Sequence record: PP886228
From: Escherichia phage vB_EcoM_D4
Strand: one strand, 5' to 3'
Length of the DNA: 64,000 nt
A program made the position numbers and the translations under genes. The notes beneath the pieces are model-generated. The model saw only the letters and a list, made by a program, of their open reading frames with translations, did not search any database and had not been told where the DNA came from. Numbering within the stretch: the stretch's first letter is position 1; each line of letters opens with the position of its first letter. Of this stretch, positions 9,643 to 15,239 are shown in pieces.

Positions 9643-10497
9643 ATGTTTGAAAAGATTGATAGTGTTTATTACAAAACACTTGATGAAAGGACTGTAACAC
9701 AGTTTAAAGATAAATTTATCTATACAAGTATCTTGAAAGCAATCACTGATGAGTTACAAACTCTAGAGGATGTTTGCTGGCAGATGCACACAGAGAGAAA
9801 TATCAGGACGTCAGTAGGACAACAACTGGATAATATTGGCTCACTGATTAAAGTTCCTAGACCTTTAGGTGCAGATGATGAAACATATAGAGCTATGCTT
9901 TATATCCAAATCTTCCTAAGACGCTCTGACACCACCCCAACATTCTTGCAAAAAGCAATTATGACACTATATGGTGCAACTTTCTCTCAGATTTTTGAGC
10001 ATATTACTCCTAAGACTGGTGGTATCGTTATCCGTATCAACACTAGGAAAAGCGTTCTAGATGCTGCATATACACTGTCAAAGATTTCTGCAACAACTAC
10101 TGGCTCCGCTGTTATCTTAAGAGATGTTACTTTAAAAGGAACTGCTTGGACTCCTGTAGAGGTTGCTGATTCATCACTTGCTATTGTTGATGATAAAGAG
10201 AACTGGTTTGTAACTGACGCTAACAGAGGTCTTGTCACAAATAACACTGGTGGCTCTCTGGAGTCCAACCTAGTAGGGAGCCTTGCAGATGCTGGTGTTA
10301 TTGATGGTTACTTTAAGGTTGACAGAACAGCAAACTCACAGAGTGATGATTATATGACTGTAGATAGGTCTAATAACAGTGGATATTTCATCGTTGGTAA
10401 AGAAGCTATCGCAGGTGGTGCATACGGAATCATGGCTGAGGTTGCACAAATTGTCAAAGGCAGAAAAGATAAATCACAACAAGAAGGAAATTCTTAA
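9643..10497 (+). CDS. baseplate/tail-fibre-associated protein (gpI-like)
   Basis: 284-aa ORF after J-like gene; position only. Confidence 0.35.
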
Positions 10498-10799
10498 TGG
10501 CAGTTTTAAATTGGTCTACAAATGAAGTAGATACTGATGGTAACCAGTTAAAAGTTTTACCACCACCGGAAGTTCAAGAGACAGGTCTTTTAAAGGGTGA
10601 ACCTATGGGTAGACAGTGGTTCAACTATATTATCAACTACCTGCTTAATAAAGTAAACGGCACTGTTGGTGAAGTTCGCTCATATGCAACTGAGCAACCA
10701 GATTTAGTGGCTAATGGCTGGAATCTGATTAAGTCTGAGACAGGGACTGCATCAACAAGTACAAGAAACCTTTACACATATGAATATGTAGGAGCTTAA
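10497..10799 (+). CDS. tail fibre-associated small protein
   Basis: 100-aa ORF coupled upstream of fibre gene. Confidence 0.3.
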
Positions 10800-10801
10800 T
10801 A

Positions 10802-11977
10802 ATGGCAGTAGGTGAAATTCAAATTAGTGCCTTGCCACAAGCGGCCTTACCAGTTGATTTAAGTGATATCTTCCATCTCAAGCAAGGTGTTGAGGATAAA
10901 AGATGTACGCTTGAACAGTTGTTAGCACCTCACGCATCTCTGAGGAATAACCCTCATGGTGTAACTAAATCACAAGTTGGTCTTGATAATGTTATTAACT
11001 CTCTTCAATTAGTTGCAGCTAATAACTTGTCAGATATTGTAAGTGTTGCTGAGGCAAGAGCAAATCTACAAATTATGTCGTCAGAGGAAGTGAATAACTT
11101 AATTCAGCAACATATTGACGACAAAAGTAACCCACACAATACAACGAAAGCACAGGTTGGTTTAAGTAATGTTCAGAACTGGACAACATCTAATCTGTAC
11201 AATGAAGATGCTGATAAGTATGCTACCGCGAAAGCAGTTAATAATTTATATAAAGCTATCCAAGCGTCATATCCAGTAGGGACTATTCATCTATCTGTTA
11301 ACTCTGCTAACCCATCCACTTACTTGCTTTGTGGAGGTACTTGGGAGTTAGTTTCTAAAGGTAGAGCATTAGTTGGTTATGATACAGATTCTAGACCTGT
11401 TGGTTCAACGTTTGGTTCTCAGACTGTAGCATTAACAAATAATAATTTACCAGCACATACTCACTCTATCTATCTAACAGGTGGTGGTCATACACACTCT
11501 GCAAGTGTATCTATCTCTAGTTTTGATTATGGTTCAAAAAGTACATCAACTTTTGATTACGGTACAAAAACGACTAATAGTGCTGGTGCTCACACTCACA
11601 CGTTTAGTGGCACAACAAGTAATGCTGGTAACCACAACCATAGAGTCCCTATGAGGGGTAATGATAGGGGTGGCACAAACGCTATTACTGCATCTGCTGA
11701 TGCTGGTGTTGGTAATGCTATGTATACTGATTTAGCTGGTGCTCACACCCATAGCTTCTCAGGTACAACTGCATCATCTGGTGCTCATAGCCATACTGTC
11801 GCAATTGGTGCTCACAGCCACACTGTTAATATTGGTTCGCACAGTCATACAGGCACTGTTACTGTTTCTAGCTCTGAGCATACACACTCAGGGACATCTG
11901 GTTCTGTTGGTGGTGGTCAAGCTTTCAGTGTTGAGCAGCCATCTTTTGTAGTGTATGTGTGGCAGAGAACAGCTTAA
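10802..11977 (+). CDS. tail fibre protein with His-rich C-terminal tip
   Basis: Two NPH..TK.QVGL.NV repeats; C-terminal array of HTHS/HSHT motifs; C-terminus related to that of the next gene. Confidence 0.6.
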   Translation: MAVGEIQISALPQAALPVDLSDIFHLKQGVEDKRCTLEQLLAPHASLRNNPHGVTKSQVGLDNVINSLQLVAANNLSDIVSVAEARANLQIMSSEEVNNLIQQHIDDKSNPHNTTKAQVGLSNVQNWTTSNLYNEDADKYATAKAVNNLYKAIQASYPVGTIHLSVNSANPSTYLLCGGTWELVSKGRALVGYDTDSRPVGSTFGSQTVALTNNNLPAHTHSIYLTGGGHTHSASVSISSFDYGSKSTSTFDYGTKTTNSAGAHTHTFSGTTSNAGNHNHRVPMRGNDRGGTNAITASADAGVGNAMYTDLAGAHTHSFSGTTASSGAHSHTVAIGAHSHTVNIGSHSHTGTVTVSSSEHTHSGTSGSVGGGQAFSVEQPSFVVYVWQRTA

Positions 11978-11987
11978 TTTCTTTACA

Positions 11988-12008
11988 GGGGCTATAAAGC
12001 CCCTTTTA
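11988..12008 (+). terminator. hairpin ggggctataaagcccc plus T-run between fibre genes
   Basis: Perfect 6-bp stem followed by TTTT; preceded by TTTACA, same architecture as the class-B modules in the 57-60 kb array. Confidence 0.4.
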
Positions 12009-12023
12009 AGAGGAAAATTCATA

Positions 12024-14561
12024 ATGGCAGATTACAAATTGAGTCAGTTAAACTCAATCGACACAATTCGTTCAGAAGACCTATTGCACATCAGAGTTAA
12101 GAAAAGACCTGAAATGTTGGGTGACGAAGACCGTAGAATGACCTATCAAGACTTCTTAGCATCTTTTAAACTTGAAAGATTTGTTCAGATTGCTGGTAGT
12201 ACTATGACAGGTGACTTAGGGATTGTTAAGTTACTTTATGGTGGTAAGGCAGTATTTGACCCAACAGGCTCTTCTGAGGTTACTATTGGGGATATTTTAA
12301 AGACTTTTAAAATTAATTCAAATGGGCTTAAACTCACTATTGCAGATGCCACAAGGTCGGCAACTGTTTATCATACTTTGAACAAACCAAGCCCTAATGA
12401 ACTTGGCATGAGAACTAATGAAGAGAATGATGCAAGATATGCAAGGCTTGCTGTTACAAACACATTCTCTGGAACTCAGAACATTCAAGGTGATGCTAAC
12501 TTACTTCGCCTTAGAAACCGAAATGCAAACAATGCACAATACATTGAAGGTGTAAACCTAGATGGTTCAGCTAGATGGTGGGTTGGTATTGGTAGCAATG
12601 GTTCTGACGAAGTAAAACTGTACAATAACAAATACAACTCAGTCTTGACTGTTGCAAGTAATATCTCTGTTAATAAATCTTTAGCAATCACTGGACAAGT
12701 TCAACCTTCAGATTTCTCTAACTTAGATGCTAGATACTTCACTCAGACAGTTGCTAATCAGAGATTTGCACAGTTAGCTGGCAATAATACTTTTACAGGT
12801 GCTAACACTTTCACTAGCCTTGTTGTTAAGAAGAATGCTAATGCTATTACTTTGCAGAATACTGATACAAGTACAGCACTTTACATTCTCGGTAAGAAGT
12901 CTGATGGAACAAATAAATGGTATGTTGGTACAGATTCTGACGAGACACGTCTGAACATTTATAACTACCTTACAGGTTCACAGGTTTCACTAGGTACTAC
13001 TATTGGTATCAATAAGACTGTGCAAATCACTGGACAAGTTCAACCTTCGGATTGGGCTAATATCGATTCTAGATATATTCCGGCAGCAACATTAAGTACG
13101 ATTGCAAGAACTAATGCTGCTAATACATTCTCTGCACAACAGGTTATCAACGCTGATGGTGAAGCTCTTGCGTTAAAAGCAAAAACTGCAACGTCATTAT
13201 TTATTAGAGGTAAGGATGTTGATGGAACCAGCAAGTGGTATGTTGGTAATGGTGATGCCAGTGATATCTTAAACCTGTATAACTACAAGACAGGTAAAGG
13301 GCTTAACATTGGTTCAGTATTTGAAATGAATGCAACTTTAGCAATCACTGGACAAGTTCAACCTTCTGATTGGGCTAATATTGATGCAAGATACTTTACG
13401 CAAAGTGCTAGTGATGGTAGATACCTGAGAGTCAGAAGTACTGGCTTCAATAATGGAAACGTTGAAAAGTGGGCTAAAATTGCTACTGTCGTTATGCCGC
13501 AATCCGCATCTACTGCGGTGATTGAAGTGTTTGGTGGGTCTGGTTTTAATGTTAACGCACCACACCAAGCAGGTAAGTGTGAGATTATTTTACGAACATC
13601 AAACAATAACCCAAAGGGTTTAAATGTTGTAGCTTGGAGAACCGCAGAGAATACCATTGTCACAGATATTGGTTATGTTAACACATCTGGCGACACTTAT
13701 GATATTTACTGTAGGGTCGGTACGTACCAAAATGGTACAACATCAAGAGTTCAATCTTCTAGCAATGCAAGTGTGCAGCTATTTGAAGTCCCACAAACGT
13801 TTGATGATGCCCCACAAGGTATTGTGAAGGGTACAATTGCAAAATACTACACAAGTTTGCAAAAGCCAACCCCTTCAGATATCGGTGCATATACTAAAGC
13901 TGAAACTGACCAGAAAATTGCAGAAGCAATCAGTGACTCTACAGACCTGAATAAAATCTATCCAGTCGGTATTGTGACGTGGTTTAACAGTAATGTTAAC
14001 CCTAATACAGCACTTCCTGGTCTAACTTGGACGTACCTGAACAATGGTGTTGGCAGAACTATTAGAATTGCAGCAGCAAATGGCTCAGATGTTGCTACAA
14101 CTGGTGGTTCAGACTCTGTAACGTTATCTGTTGGTAACTTACCTTCACACACGCATAGTTTCTCTGCTACCACTTCATCATTTGATTATGGTACTAAGAC
14201 TTCTAGCACAACTGGTAACCATAACCACAACAGGGGGACTATGGAGATTACTGGTACAGTAGGTTACTTCAGAAGTGATTCTAGCAGCTTCTACACAGCA
14301 AGTGGTGCATTCACACTTGGTAGTTCAACTGCTTCTAAAGGTTTTACTGGTTCTAACTTCACTTATGGTATCCCTGCTAACTTCAATGCGTCAAGAACTT
14401 GGTCTGGTGTAACGAATACAACAGGTAACCACAGCCACACTGTTGGTATTGGTGCTCACAGCCACACAGTTAGCGGTAACACAGGTGGTACTGGTTCTGG
14501 TTCAGCATTTAGTGTTACTAACCAGTTCTACAAGTTAATGGCTTGGGTAAGAACTGCTTAA
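12024..14561 (+). CDS. long tail fibre protein
   Basis: Start moved to ATG 12024 (MADYKLSQ); three tandem repeats of about 115 aa each ending ITGQVQPSDWANIDARYFTQ; C-terminal HxH-rich domain ending AWVRTA like previous gene. Confidence 0.6.
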   Translation: MADYKLSQLNSIDTIRSEDLLHIRVKKRPEMLGDEDRRMTYQDFLASFKLERFVQIAGSTMTGDLGIVKLLYGGKAVFDPTGSSEVTIGDILKTFKINSNGLKLTIADATRSATVYHTLNKPSPNELGMRTNEENDARYARLAVTNTFSGTQNIQGDANLLRLRNRNANNAQYIEGVNLDGSARWWVGIGSNGSDEVKLYNNKYNSVLTVASNISVNKSLAITGQVQPSDFSNLDARYFTQTVANQRFAQLAGNNTFTGANTFTSLVVKKNANAITLQNTDTSTALYILGKKSDGTNKWYVGTDSDETRLNIYNYLTGSQVSLGTTIGINKTVQITGQVQPSDWANIDSRYIPAATLSTIARTNAANTFSAQQVINADGEALALKAKTATSLFIRGKDVDGTSKWYVGNGDASDILNLYNYKTGKGLNIGSVFEMNATLAITGQVQPSDWANIDARYFTQSASDGRYLRVRSTGFNNGNVEKWAKIATVVMPQSASTAVIEVFGGSGFNVNAPHQAGKCEIILRTSNNNPKGLNVVAWRTAENTIVTDIGYVNTSGDTYDIYCRVGTYQNGTTSRVQSSSNASVQLFEVPQTFDDAPQGIVKGTIAKYYTSLQKPTPSDIGAYTKAETDQKIAEAISDSTDLNKIYPVGIVTWFNSNVNPNTALPGLTWTYLNNGVGRTIRIAAANGSDVATTGGSDSVTLSVGNLPSHTHSFSATTSSFDYGTKTSSTTGNHNHNRGTMEITGTVGYFRSDSSSFYTASGAFTLGSSTASKGFTGSNFTYGIPANFNASRTWSGVTNTTGNHSHTVGIGAHSHTVSGNTGGTGSGSAFSVTNQFYKLMAWVRTA

Positions 14562-14640: not shown

Positions 14641-14838
14641 ATGCCTACAATCCTAGCAATTCTTCTAAAAAATCTAGGTAGCTTCTTCTGGAAACTCATT
14701 TTATCCCTTCTAAGTGAATACATGATTGAGAAAGTGTTCTTTAGGCTTGCAAGATACCTTGCGAGTAAAACAGACACACCTATTGATGATGAGTTCGTAG
14801 ATAACTTAGAAAAAGCTTTTAAGGGGGAAAATAAATGA
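14641..14838 (+). CDS. small membrane protein
   Basis: 65 aa, one N-terminal hydrophobic helix, charged C-terminus; function unassigned. Confidence 0.3.
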   Translation: MPTILAILLKNLGSFFWKLILSLLSEYMIEKVFFRLARYLASKTDTPIDDEFVDNLEKAFKGENK

Positions 14839-15206
14839 AGTGGCTAGAGGAAGCTTTTAAAAATAATATTGGTGCAATTGTAGTTGGTATTTTTAGTGTT
14901 ATTGGGATGTATACCACCATGCAAGTTTCAAGTGGTAAACAAGAAGTGTCTGTCACAACAAAGTTACAGCAGCTAGATAACTATTCCAAAAGTAATTATT
15001 CAGCTATTCGTGATTTACAGTCTGACATGAGATTGATTCAGCTAGGGATGGAGAACCAGAAAGTTCAGTTAGAGAATGTTAAGGGTGAGAATGCAAAACT
15101 TACCAAAACTCTTGATAAGTTCTCTGATAGTGTGAACAATCTGGCTCAGTCAGTATCAGCCTTGCAAGCTATTACTGAAAAGAACACAAAGAATACTGAA
15201 AAGTAA
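14835..15206 (+). CDS. membrane-anchored coiled-coil protein
   Basis: 123 aa, N-terminal TM segment (IGAIVVGIFSVIGMY) then heptad-like region. Confidence 0.3.
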   Translation: MKWLEEAFKNNIGAIVVGIFSVIGMYTTMQVSSGKQEVSVTTKLQQLDNYSKSNYSAIRDLQSDMRLIQLGMENQKVQLENVKGENAKLTKTLDKFSDSVNNLAQSVSALQAITEKNTKNTEK

Positions 15207-15213
15207 AGTTTAA

Positions 15214-15239
15214 GGCTCCTTTTTACGGGAGCCTTTTTT
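15214..15239. terminator. bidirectional rho-independent terminator between convergent blocks
   Basis: ggctcc tttttac gggagcc hairpin flanked by A-run upstream and TTTTTT downstream; sits between + late block and - strand thyA. Confidence 0.6.

Follow-up and report, generated by a model that had tools for sequence, protein, structure and literature searches.

Two predicted lateral tail fibres with T4 gp37-type HxH tips and exchangeable repeat cores in Escherichia phage vB_EcoM_D4

Sequence comparison identified two consecutive genes of the Escherichia phage vB_EcoM_D4 (PP886228) as the short (gene A) and long (gene B) lateral tail fibres of a Felixounavirus. The window is the whole 64,000-nt stretch of this phage that was analysed. 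The C-terminal regions of A and B align as true homologues and correspond to the collar-needle-head tip of the T4 gp37 type. Judged from the alignments, the plasticity of these fibres comes from cassette exchange and not from a change in repeat number. The two-fibre architecture, the HxH tips, and the three-repeat shaft were already published in 2025 for Bas63 (Escherichia phage JohannRWettstein) and its genus, in a cryo-EM study of the short fibre gp26 and the long fibre gp27 (Sci Adv 2025, PMC12609058). Our sole addition to that paper is modest: the repeat cores appear as discrete cassettes, shuffled across conserved linkers at a copy number of three.

In megablast, the window DNA showed 100% identity to Escherichia phage vB_EcoM_I14.1, a wV8/Felix O1-like myophage, and wV8 showed 94% DNA identity to the window. 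The taxonomy given in the GenBank record of the phage is apparently wrong. The ORF list gave two consecutive ORFs on the + strand at 10802–14561, namely A (10802–11977, 391 aa) and a longer one (11955–14561, 868 aa), and the GenBank CDS for B also opens at 11955. All 120 homologues of B open with MADYKLSQLN, which lies at position 12024 of the window, and the ribosome-binding site AGAGGAAAA is immediately upstream of it. B therefore most likely comprises 12024–14561 (845 aa), and the long fibre start in the GenBank record is probably 23 codons too early. The short fibre is annotated there as a mere "hypothetical protein". The original prediction had named both genes as tail fibres, and this is supported. 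In PHROGs, A matched phrog_2097 (tail fibre, E = 1e-138), and B matched phrog_4277 over its full length. The window and Bas63 share the gene order wedge 2 (489 aa), wedge 1 (284–285 aa), 100-aa platform, short fibre, and long fibre. Bas63 gp25 is described as a T4 gp9-like platform for the long fibre (PMC12609058). The features are collected in Table 1.

Table 1. Predicted features of the tail fibre region (positions in the window).
Feature	Position	Strand	Basis
100-aa protein	10497..10799	+	Bas63 gp25 orthologue, 87% identity, same gene order
Short tail fibre gene A, 391 aa	10802..11977	+	Bas63 gp26 orthologue, 75% identity, full length
A aa 1–144: putative N-terminal baseplate-binding part and helix-turn shaft	10802..11233	+	AlphaFold2 helices; role by analogy with Bas63 short fibre
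A aa 145–218: collar domain, T4 gp10/gp11-type fold	11234..11455	+	
A aa 219–280: predicted ascending needle strand, HxH at 219, 230, 264, 278	11456..11641	+	T4 gp37 alignment
A aa 281–314: predicted head domain at chain reversal, likely receptor contact	11642..11743	+	Conservation and T4 alignment
A aa 315–391: predicted descending needle strand, HxH at 315, 329, 338, 347, 360; C-terminal strand back to collar, end VWQRTA	11744..11977	+	
Long tail fibre gene B, 845 aa (probable start)	12024..14561	+	Bas63 gp27 orthologue, 61% identity, blockwise conservation
B aa 1–128: putative N-terminal baseplate/platform-binding region	12024..12407	+	Mean identity 0.86–1.00, 120 homologues; nearly invariant in genus
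B repeat 1, aa 129–241: beta-strand core (aa 141–220) and conserved linker, end ITGQVQPSDFSNLDARYFTQ	12408..12746	+	Profile match aa 132–241; Pfam gp37_trimer
B repeat 2, aa 242–354	12747..13085	+	Profile match, repeat alignment, model
B repeat 3, aa 355–460	13086..13403	+	Profile match, repeat alignment, model
B aa 461–610: predicted beta-sandwich middle domain, exchangeable	13404..13853	+	All-beta, pLDDT 70–88
B aa 611–735: collar and predicted short ascending needle strand, HxH at 709, 733	13854..14228	+	All homologues share ≥86% pairwise identity
B aa 736–802: predicted enlarged (~67 aa) variable head domain, likely receptor contact	14229..14429	+	Homologue comparison
B aa 803–845: predicted descending needle strand (HxH at 803, 812) and return strand, end AWVRTA	14430..14561	+	Aligns with last T4 HxH motifs

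The shaft of B contains three tandem units of 113, 113, and 106 aa, and a profile built from the three found exactly three (aa 132–241, 242–354, and 355–460). The triplication expected from the sequence is real, but the unit length of 115 aa proposed for it is not. Pfam PF20744 (gp37_trimer) matched B in three stretches with 209.7 bits against a cut-off of 21.7. The 20-aa motif at the repeat ends lies at nt 12687–12746, 13026–13085, and 13344–13403, within about 15 nt of the positions first proposed. It reads ITGQVQPSDFSNLDARYFTQ in copy 1, ITGQVQPSDWANIDSRYIPA in copy 2, and ITGQVQPSDWANIDARYFTQ in copy 3; the form ITGQVQPSDWANIDARYFTQ, which had been given for all three, is exact in copy 3 only. 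The repeat cores were modelled as beta modules (pLDDT 85–91, 5–7 strands), with short helices in the linkers. Among themselves, the units have 38–43% protein and 59–62% DNA identity. The 339/318-nt repeats of B escaped Tandem Repeats Finder, because the copies are too divergent.

A comparison of copy number across related phages, suggested with the original prediction, gave hardly any variation. Three copies are present in 119 of the 120 homologues, and copy-number variation was rejected as a source of diversity. The expected host-range plasticity is borne out insofar as relatives differ in the repeat and tip regions. The variable parts are the head, repeat cores, and middle domain, and the collar, linkers, and ends are conserved (at least 86–100%). 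Against Bas63, linker and needle DNA of 86–93% identity alternates with cassettes of 29–49%. The repeat cores form about 20 discrete types with 30–50% identity between types, set within highly conserved linkers (at about 12684–12803, 13026–13103, and 13344–13424 in the window), and 41 architectures occur among 118 proteins. The comparative data show core types shuffled between phages and occasionally moved between repeat positions. Two repeats are alike in the metagenomic variants P0061 (R2 = R3) and P0018 (R1 = R3), which may be assembly artefacts. The claim that the repeats are recombination substrates holds between phages, but within the genome they are weak substrates for homologous recombination, since only 24–31 nt are exactly shared.

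These data may describe a three-slot cassette system, in which the ~20 core types are reassorted among Felixounaviruses across linkers of ~80–120 nt, including out-of-register slot moves, and a length constraint holds the slots at three. We give this system about an even chance of being correct. If true, it would explain the beta-helix repeat variability that was called "unexpected" and left open in the Bas63 paper (PMC12609058), and the recombination substrates would be the linkers and not the whole repeats.

The repeats might also be more than a spacer rod. They could be secondary glycan-binding modules or targets of host defence, so that their diversity would reflect selection for binding or escape and not neutral tolerance. 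The discrete core types in highly conserved linkers and the number of architectures fit such selection, and the Bas63 authors list the same possibilities as open (PMC12609058). However, recombination with diverged lineages can yield discrete types without selection, and Pfam and PHROGs revealed neither a lectin-like nor an enzymatic family in the repeat cores. We regard selection on the repeats as possible but rather doubtful.

Cassette exchange would also involve the middle domain and the head of B. The middle domain is replaced in P0050 and in Bas63; Bas63 and the 785-aa class have a shorter, unrelated domain at its position. The DNA identity of the middle domain to Bas63 is 29%. Foldseek of the B model gave the T7 gp17 tip (E = 3e-4) and the WceF N-terminal domain (E = 2e-7); placing these matches on the middle domain is a guess, since Foldseek names no part of the query. 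The head had a mean identity of 0.58–0.64 across homologues, with pairwise identities mostly below 30% or above 60% and few intermediate, and 35% DNA identity to Bas63. In megablast, the listed Salmonella phages match the query up to 3415 (approximately position 14216 of the window), just 5′ of the head. The last segment (aa 803–845) again showed 93% DNA identity to Bas63, including a 56-nt exact run.

Both C-termini had been described as rich in Gly/Ser/Thr and studded with HxH motifs, and this was confirmed. A has nine HxH motifs, containing 18 of its 24 His, and B has four, containing 8 of 11; none of 20,000 shuffles attained the count of A or that of B. The Ser+Thr+Gly share of the tips is 45–49%. 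The sole output of Tandem Repeats Finder was a 27-nt tandem (HxH) periodicity at 11768–11844 in A. Composition-adjusted BLASTP aligned A with B over 221 aa (32% identity, E = 4e-17), beginning in the non-repetitive collar (YPVG...W...). In HMMER, A 145–362 matched the T4 gp37 tip (PDB 2XGF) with E = 1.8e-26, including an ungapped stretch of 103 aa, and B 703–824 matched it with E = 3.7e-7. BLASTP identity to the gp37 tip was 38.6% for A and 40.8% for B. All seven T4 HxH motifs are matched in A, where 230, 264, 278, 315, 329, 338, and 347 are in register with 2XGF chain positions 99, 131, 145, 182, 196, 205, and 214; the motifs at 219 and 360 are extra. In B, the motifs at 733, 803, and 812 correspond to those at chain positions 131, 196, and 205, and 709 lies in a low-confidence alignment edge. 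The register is kept only in part by B because it has only four HxH motifs.

A globular collar of the T4 gp10/gp11/gp12 fold precedes the needle. The collar of A was predicted with pLDDT 83–92 and is structurally nearest to T4 gp11 and gp10, and A scores above the threshold of a curated Pfam domain. The collar of B reached 24.6 bits with Pfam Gp10_C, under the cut-off of 27. PF07484 (phage tail collar) matched neither A nor B at E ≤ 0.01; it is present in more distant relatives of the A tip (prophage side fibres). A is "short" by name only and is not classed as a T4 gp12 homologue. The AlphaFold2 monomers are weak in the tips (mean pLDDT 69.8 for A and 57.0 for B, with the tip below 50), and structure searches recovered the collar only.

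The original prediction took the common tip and the endings VWQRTA and AWVRTA as signs of a duplication. Both endings are present and the homology is genuine, but [VI]W.R[TV]A is the signature of the whole family and no mark of A–B relatedness. A recent in-genome duplication, or ongoing gene conversion copying one fibre's tip onto the other, would suit the adjacency of A and B, their common domain, and a 54-nt stretch around IGAHSHTV with 80% DNA identity. However, this stretch codes for the family-wide His motif, and the 20 nt that it shares exactly are the longest exact DNA match between A and B. The A tip scored 92.8 bits (38.6%) with T4 gp37 versus 64.7 bits (32.3%) with the B tip, and more than 130 representatives of other 50%-identity clusters are likewise nearer to the A tip than the B tip is. 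A recent tip duplication was rejected on this ground and is very unlikely. In Bas63 the two fibres are arranged alike and have diverged to the same extent, so any tip duplication would be older than the genus. The fear that the likeness is purely compositional, a Gly/Ser/Thr/His-rich low complexity with no common ancestry or fold, could draw on the composition of both tips and on the high HMMER bias terms of the 2XGF matches (31.6 and 24.1), but it has almost no probability, as the match survives composition adjustment and opens in the collar, the Pfam domain and the collar model of A are confident, and the T4 motifs keep their register across a gap-free stretch of 103 aa.

With homologous gp37-type tips as the preferred reading, we propose the following arrangement, which we consider highly probable as a whole on the basis of the alignments and of analogy with solved fibres. 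Each fibre would be a homotrimer, as it is in the T4 crystal structure and in the cryo-EM model of Bas63. Past the globular collar, the chain would ascend a six-stranded needle, reverse at a small head, and descend. Because the chain reverses at the head in the gp37 fold, the C-terminus (W.RTA) would pack at the collar. The suggestion of a receptor- or metal-binding tip is upheld as to the family, which binds metal (T4 gp37 needle, HxH-Fe), but the chain C-terminus would not be the physical tip. Each HxH from three chains would place six His around one axial metal ion, which is Fe2+ in T4 gp37; T4 gp12 has Zn at an HxH site. Up to nine stacked metal sites in A and up to four in B may rigidify the needle. 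The needle of B may differ from that of T4, since only four HxH motifs are present and the head is enlarged.

The receptor would be contacted by the head, which separates the ascending HxH run from the descending one. The conserved HxH and terminal segments would act as a scaffold, with the variable head between them in A and in B. The predicted receptor-contacting head coincides with the least conserved tip segment. In A, conservation across the orthologues is lowest at aa 281–300 (mean identity 0.16), aa 286–305 have pLDDT below 50 in the AlphaFold2 monomer, and the protein departs from Bas63 gp26 precisely at aa 281–314. This segment equals the T4 head segment in length in the ungapped 103-aa alignment. 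The N-terminal part of A has two copies of NPHxxTKxQVGLxNV (aa 50 and 110). T4 binds OmpC/LPS. LPS is the receptor for the genus Felixounavirus (PMC8594841) and is presumed to be the receptor of the present phage. The shaft of B would consist of three beta-strand modules (gp37_trimer) with conserved helix-turn linkers between them, followed by the exchangeable beta-sandwich domain. Host range would shift via swaps of repeat cores, middle domain, and head between phages, with crossovers in conserved linker, collar, and needle DNA and the repeat number fixed at three.

The nearest known system is Bas63, which resembles the present phage in gene order and in the identity of both fibres (Table 1). 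Both fibres have the collar, HxH needle, and head tip, the beta-helix repeats of the long fibre are split by helix-turn linkers, and the variable parts are the tips and the cores of the repeats. Unlike the Bas63 short fibre, with seven reported HxH motifs and none corresponding to A 264 or A 278, A has nine. B has four HxH motifs and a head of ~67 aa, whereas the Bas63 long fibre has six (one HHxH). The ~150-aa middle domain of B differs from the shorter, unrelated one of Bas63, and all three B repeat cores belong to other cassette types.

The T4 gp37 tip and A are in register in the collar, at all seven HxH motifs, and in the length of the head, and the needle of B aligns with this tip. However, the tip is borne here by a short fibre of 391 aa and by a long fibre made of one polypeptide, whereas the T4 fibre consists of four proteins; A has two extra HxH motifs, and B has only four with a larger head. 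The rod of T4 gp34 (PDB 5NXH) and PF20744 share with B the repeated beta modules with short helix-turn linkers between. In the Bas63 paper, the rod of the long fibre is treated as the equivalent of gp34 (PMC12609058). B and 5NXH gave no sequence match at E ≤ 0.01, and Foldseek of the B monomer model against 5NXH gave a weak match (E = 0.011, probability 0.41).

In the T-even "His box" system, reportedly described by Tetart, Desplats and Krisch in J Mol Biol in 1998, short conserved motifs including GxHxH flank variable segments of gp37/gp38, act as crossover points for recombination, and swap adhesin specificity. Conserved linker and needle DNA likewise alternates with variable cassettes in B, but B also exchanges shaft repeat cores, which occasionally change repeat position. 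The Shigella phage Sf14 (Mooglevirus, Ounavirinae) has two retracted fibres, the longer with a T4 gp37-like distal tip; each consists of a single protein, no Mu-type chaperone homologues are encoded, and the fibres are described as generally Mu-like (PMC11821841). By description, Sf14 is alike in its two one-protein fibres and gp37-like tip, but it belongs to a different genus.

For phage engineering, the map of scaffold and cassettes shows possible junctions for chimeric fibres. The exchangeable blocks would be A 281–314, B 736–802, the three repeat cores, and the middle domain, and segments of ~35–70 residues most likely set receptor specificity.

PHROGs assigned no known function to the two ORFs directly 3′ of B, so no gp38-type chaperone was recognised there. 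A promoter and terminator scan inside genes A and B gave nothing exceeding the shuffle expectation. One terminator-like hairpin was found downstream, at 15212–15235.

The short tail fibre gene A and the long tail fibre gene B are ordinary tail-fibre genes of a kind already described, from a phage whose genome is deposited. Only one element is modestly new, namely a pattern of cassette shuffling among the shaft repeats. Escherichia phage vB_EcoM_I14.1 (PP892526.1) matched the queried stretch at 100% identity, and the O157 typing phages and O157 phage wV8 matched it at approximately 94%. A total of 235 phage records matched, which by name are nearly all Escherichia, Salmonella or Felixounavirus phages. 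PP892526.1 is filed in GenBank under Demerecviridae; Markadamsvirinae; Tequintavirus (T5-like). This taxonomy looks wrong, because the DNA and protein similarity of the window is all to Felixounavirus myophages (wV8, Bas63).

The ORF map showed that A and B are consecutive plus-strand genes downstream of the baseplate genes, with thymidylate synthase and DHFR genes on the opposite strand downstream of the fibres. The gene order is exactly that of gp23, gp24, gp25, gp26 and gp27 in Bas63 (JohannRWettstein, MZ501086). Bas63 gp26 was 75% identical to A, and gp27 was 61% identical to B. Two conserved small ORFs and a terminator-like hairpin follow B. The N-terminal stretches of both ORFs are hydrophobic, and our guess is that they act in lysis or fibre assembly.

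Coordinates of the fibre genes, their parts and neighbouring features (window positions unless stated)
Feature	Coordinates	Size	Remarks
Baseplate_J protein		489 aa	Upstream of the fibre genes
Baseplate protein		284 aa	After the Baseplate_J gene
100-aa protein		100 aa	Directly before A; 87% identical to Bas63 gp25
A, short tail fibre	10802-11977 (+)	391 aa	Orthologue of Bas63 gp26
NPHxxTKxQVGLxNV, first copy	10949-10993	15 aa	In A
NPHxxTKxQVGLxNV, second copy	11129-11173	15 aa	In A
B, long tail fibre	12024-14561 (+)	845 aa	From the probable start; orthologue of Bas63 gp27
Repeat 1 of B	12408-12746 (+)	113 aa	aa 129-241
Repeat 2 of B	12747-13085 (+)	113 aa	aa 242-354
Repeat 3 of B	13086-13403 (+)	106 aa	aa 355-460
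Middle domain of B	13404-13853 (+)		Between repeats and collar; beta-sandwich, pLDDT 70-88
Small ORF	14641-14838	65 aa	3' of B; PHROG family of unknown function; Bas63 gp28
Small ORF	14835-15206	123 aa	Before the hairpin; PHROG family of unknown function; Bas63 gp29
Terminator-like hairpin	15212-15235		After the two small ORFs
B homologue P0072	L002 3001-5223		In-register 318-nt deletion, exactly one unit, at an NTF[ST] motif; equivalent to window 12818-13135

His-x-His (HxH) motifs were counted nine times in A and four times in B; with each sequence shuffled 20,000 times, neither count was ever reached. The chains end in VWQRTA and AWVRTA, as originally described. Low complexity as the sole source of the similarity between the tips, the alternative named with the original prediction, was refuted by four results. 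Composition-adjusted BLASTP aligned A and B over 221 residues (E = 4e-17, 32% identity), starting within the non-repetitive YPVG...W segment. Pfam Gp10_C was above threshold in A and slightly under it in B. The solved T4 gp37 tip (PDB 2XGF) matched A at 145-362 (E = 1.8e-26) and B at 703-824 (E = 3.7e-7). The alignment of A with T4 was ungapped over 103 residues and placed all seven T4 HxH motifs (chain positions 99, 131, 145, 182, 196, 205 and 214) in register on A (230, 264, 278, 315, 329, 338 and 347). The motifs of A at 219 and 360 are additional to these. The sequence comparisons thus indicate that the shared C-terminal domain is real; the proposed homology of the tips was right, as probably was their proposed metal binding.

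The two Bas63 fibres have been resolved by cryo-EM, the short gp26 at 430 Å and the long gp27 at 630 Å; the needle is six-stranded because the chain turns round at the head and runs back (PMC12609058). By homology, we infer that the A and B fibres would be trimers with the same chain reversal, binding one axial metal ion per HxH level (up to nine levels in A and four in B). Receptor contact would then lie at the head that separates the ascending HxH run from the descending one, and the idea of a receptor-binding C-terminal tip needs correction, as the chain C-terminus is probably not the contact site. Among close A orthologues, mean identity drops to 0.16 at residues 281-300; conservation of the B tip is lowest at 741-800, and that of the collar and last 40 residues is 0.91-1.00. 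The differences between A and Bas63 gp26 are nearly confined to residues 261-330. Bas63 gp27 is nearly identical to B over its collar and final 45 residues, and its head is unrelated to that of B. This conservation pattern fits the head as the putative receptor-contacting part. The receptor of the genus is LPS, not protein receptors (PMC8594841). Mean pLDDT in the monomer AlphaFold2 models was 69.8 for A and 57.0 for B, the tips being poorly predicted, and structure searches with these models supported the collar only (Foldseek match with T4 gp10 at a probability of 0.98 and E = 0.035).

The tips had also been taken for duplicates, and a recent duplication was rejected. The A tip is closer to T4 gp37 (38.6% identity, 92.8 bits) than to the B tip (32.3%, 64.7 bits), and the longest exact DNA match between A and B is 20 nt, encoding IGAHSH. 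Among the proteins collected, 308 outscored B against the A tip, including 136 representatives of 50%-identity clusters. The A-tip family is very large: a cut-off of E ≤ 0.001 retrieves 8,034 cluster representatives, and one of E ≤ 1e-10 retrieves 705. The [VI]W.R[TV]A ending recurs across it, with YIVRLA in gp37-like members.

Three tandem repeats in the B shaft were borne out with small corrections, the units being slightly shorter than the 115 aa first given. A profile built from the three units matched B exactly three times and A not at all, and Pfam gp37_trimer (PF20744) also gave three copies (209.7 bits). The 20-residue end motif starts at nt 12687, 13026 and 13344, and the end string originally given is exact in copy 3 only. 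Units are 38-43% identical in protein and 59-62% in DNA, and their longest exact DNA matches are 24-31 nt. In the B model, the repeat cores are confident all-beta modules (pLDDT 85-92) and the conserved end motifs are short helical turns. Variation in copy number among relatives was nearly absent: 119 of 120 homologues have three repeats. The lone variant, P0072, has two and comes from a metagenomic contig of 23 kb whose synteny is normal. The Bas63 authors noted a constant repeat number with unexpectedly variable repeat sequence and offered three possible explanations (PMC12609058).

The variable cores were compared in 118 full-length B homologues. For each repeat, pairwise core identity was bimodal (30-50% or 80-100%), and the linkers between cores were mostly 80-100% identical. 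Clustering at ≥70% identity gave approximately 20 core types, which form 41 different three-slot architectures. The core type in one slot is almost independent of that in the next (Spearman correlations of 0.02-0.30), and the two commonest types of the second slot (R2) and the two commonest of the third (R3) were found in all four pairings. Between the window and Bas63, DNA identity was 86-93% in the N-terminus, linker 1, collar and C-terminal end, 29-49% in the three cores, middle domain and head, and intermediate in linkers 2 (78%) and 3 (70%). Core types are usually specific to a slot, with exceptions. The first (R1) core of Bas63 is a type occupying R3 in 53 other proteins. In the cultured phages HY02 and DaR-2019a, the HY02 R2 core is 97% identical to the R3 core of DaR-2019a, a Salmonella phage whose R2 core is 84% identical to the R1 core of the window. 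In two metagenomic homologues, two of the slots hold cores that are 100% identical (R2 = R3 in P0061, R1 = R3 in P0018), which could be intragenic conversion or an assembly artefact. We read these sequence patterns as probable cassette exchange across conserved linkers, with occasional out-of-register events and a constraint keeping three units. The suggestion that the repeats are recombination substrates thus gains comparative evidence, but within this genome they share only 24-31 exact nt. The exchange may be likened to the 'His box' recombination in T-even gp37/gp38, reportedly described by Tetart et al. in 1998.

The other differences from Bas63 are variations on the modular scheme already known. 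A has nine HxH motifs, compared with seven reported for the Bas63 short fibre, and B has four with a head of approximately 67 residues, compared with six in the long fibre (PMC12609058). The middle domain of B (aa 461-610) is a beta-sandwich of approximately 150 residues, whereas Bas63 and the 785-aa class have a shorter unrelated segment. It may act as an additional binding module. Foldseek with the whole B model gave matches to WceF N-terminal domains (E = 2e-7) and to the tip domain of T7 gp17 (E = 3e-4), the matched query region being unspecified.

The MADYKLSQLN start of B at 12024 is preceded directly by AGAGGAAAA as ribosome-binding site and is used by all 120 B homologues and Bas63; it is most likely the true start. 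The deposited CDS begins at an upstream ATG at 11955, which yields 868 aa and an overlap with A; this start probably lies 23 codons before the real one. A is labelled merely 'hypothetical protein' in the deposited annotation. For gp26, the Bas63 GenBank record (L007 7500-8648, 'long tail fiber protein') conflicts with the cryo-EM paper, which assigns the long fibre to gp27 and the short one to gp26.

Tandem units of 27 nt (9 residues) at 11768-11844 encode GAHSHTV-like stretches that follow one another along the descending needle strand of A; this periodicity is the DNA trace of its evenly spaced HxH levels. The 15-residue motif NPHxxTKxQVGLxNV occurs twice in the N-terminal shaft of A, 60 residues apart (aa 50 and 110), and the copies are probably the helix-turn motifs reported for the Bas63 short tail fibre (PMC12609058).
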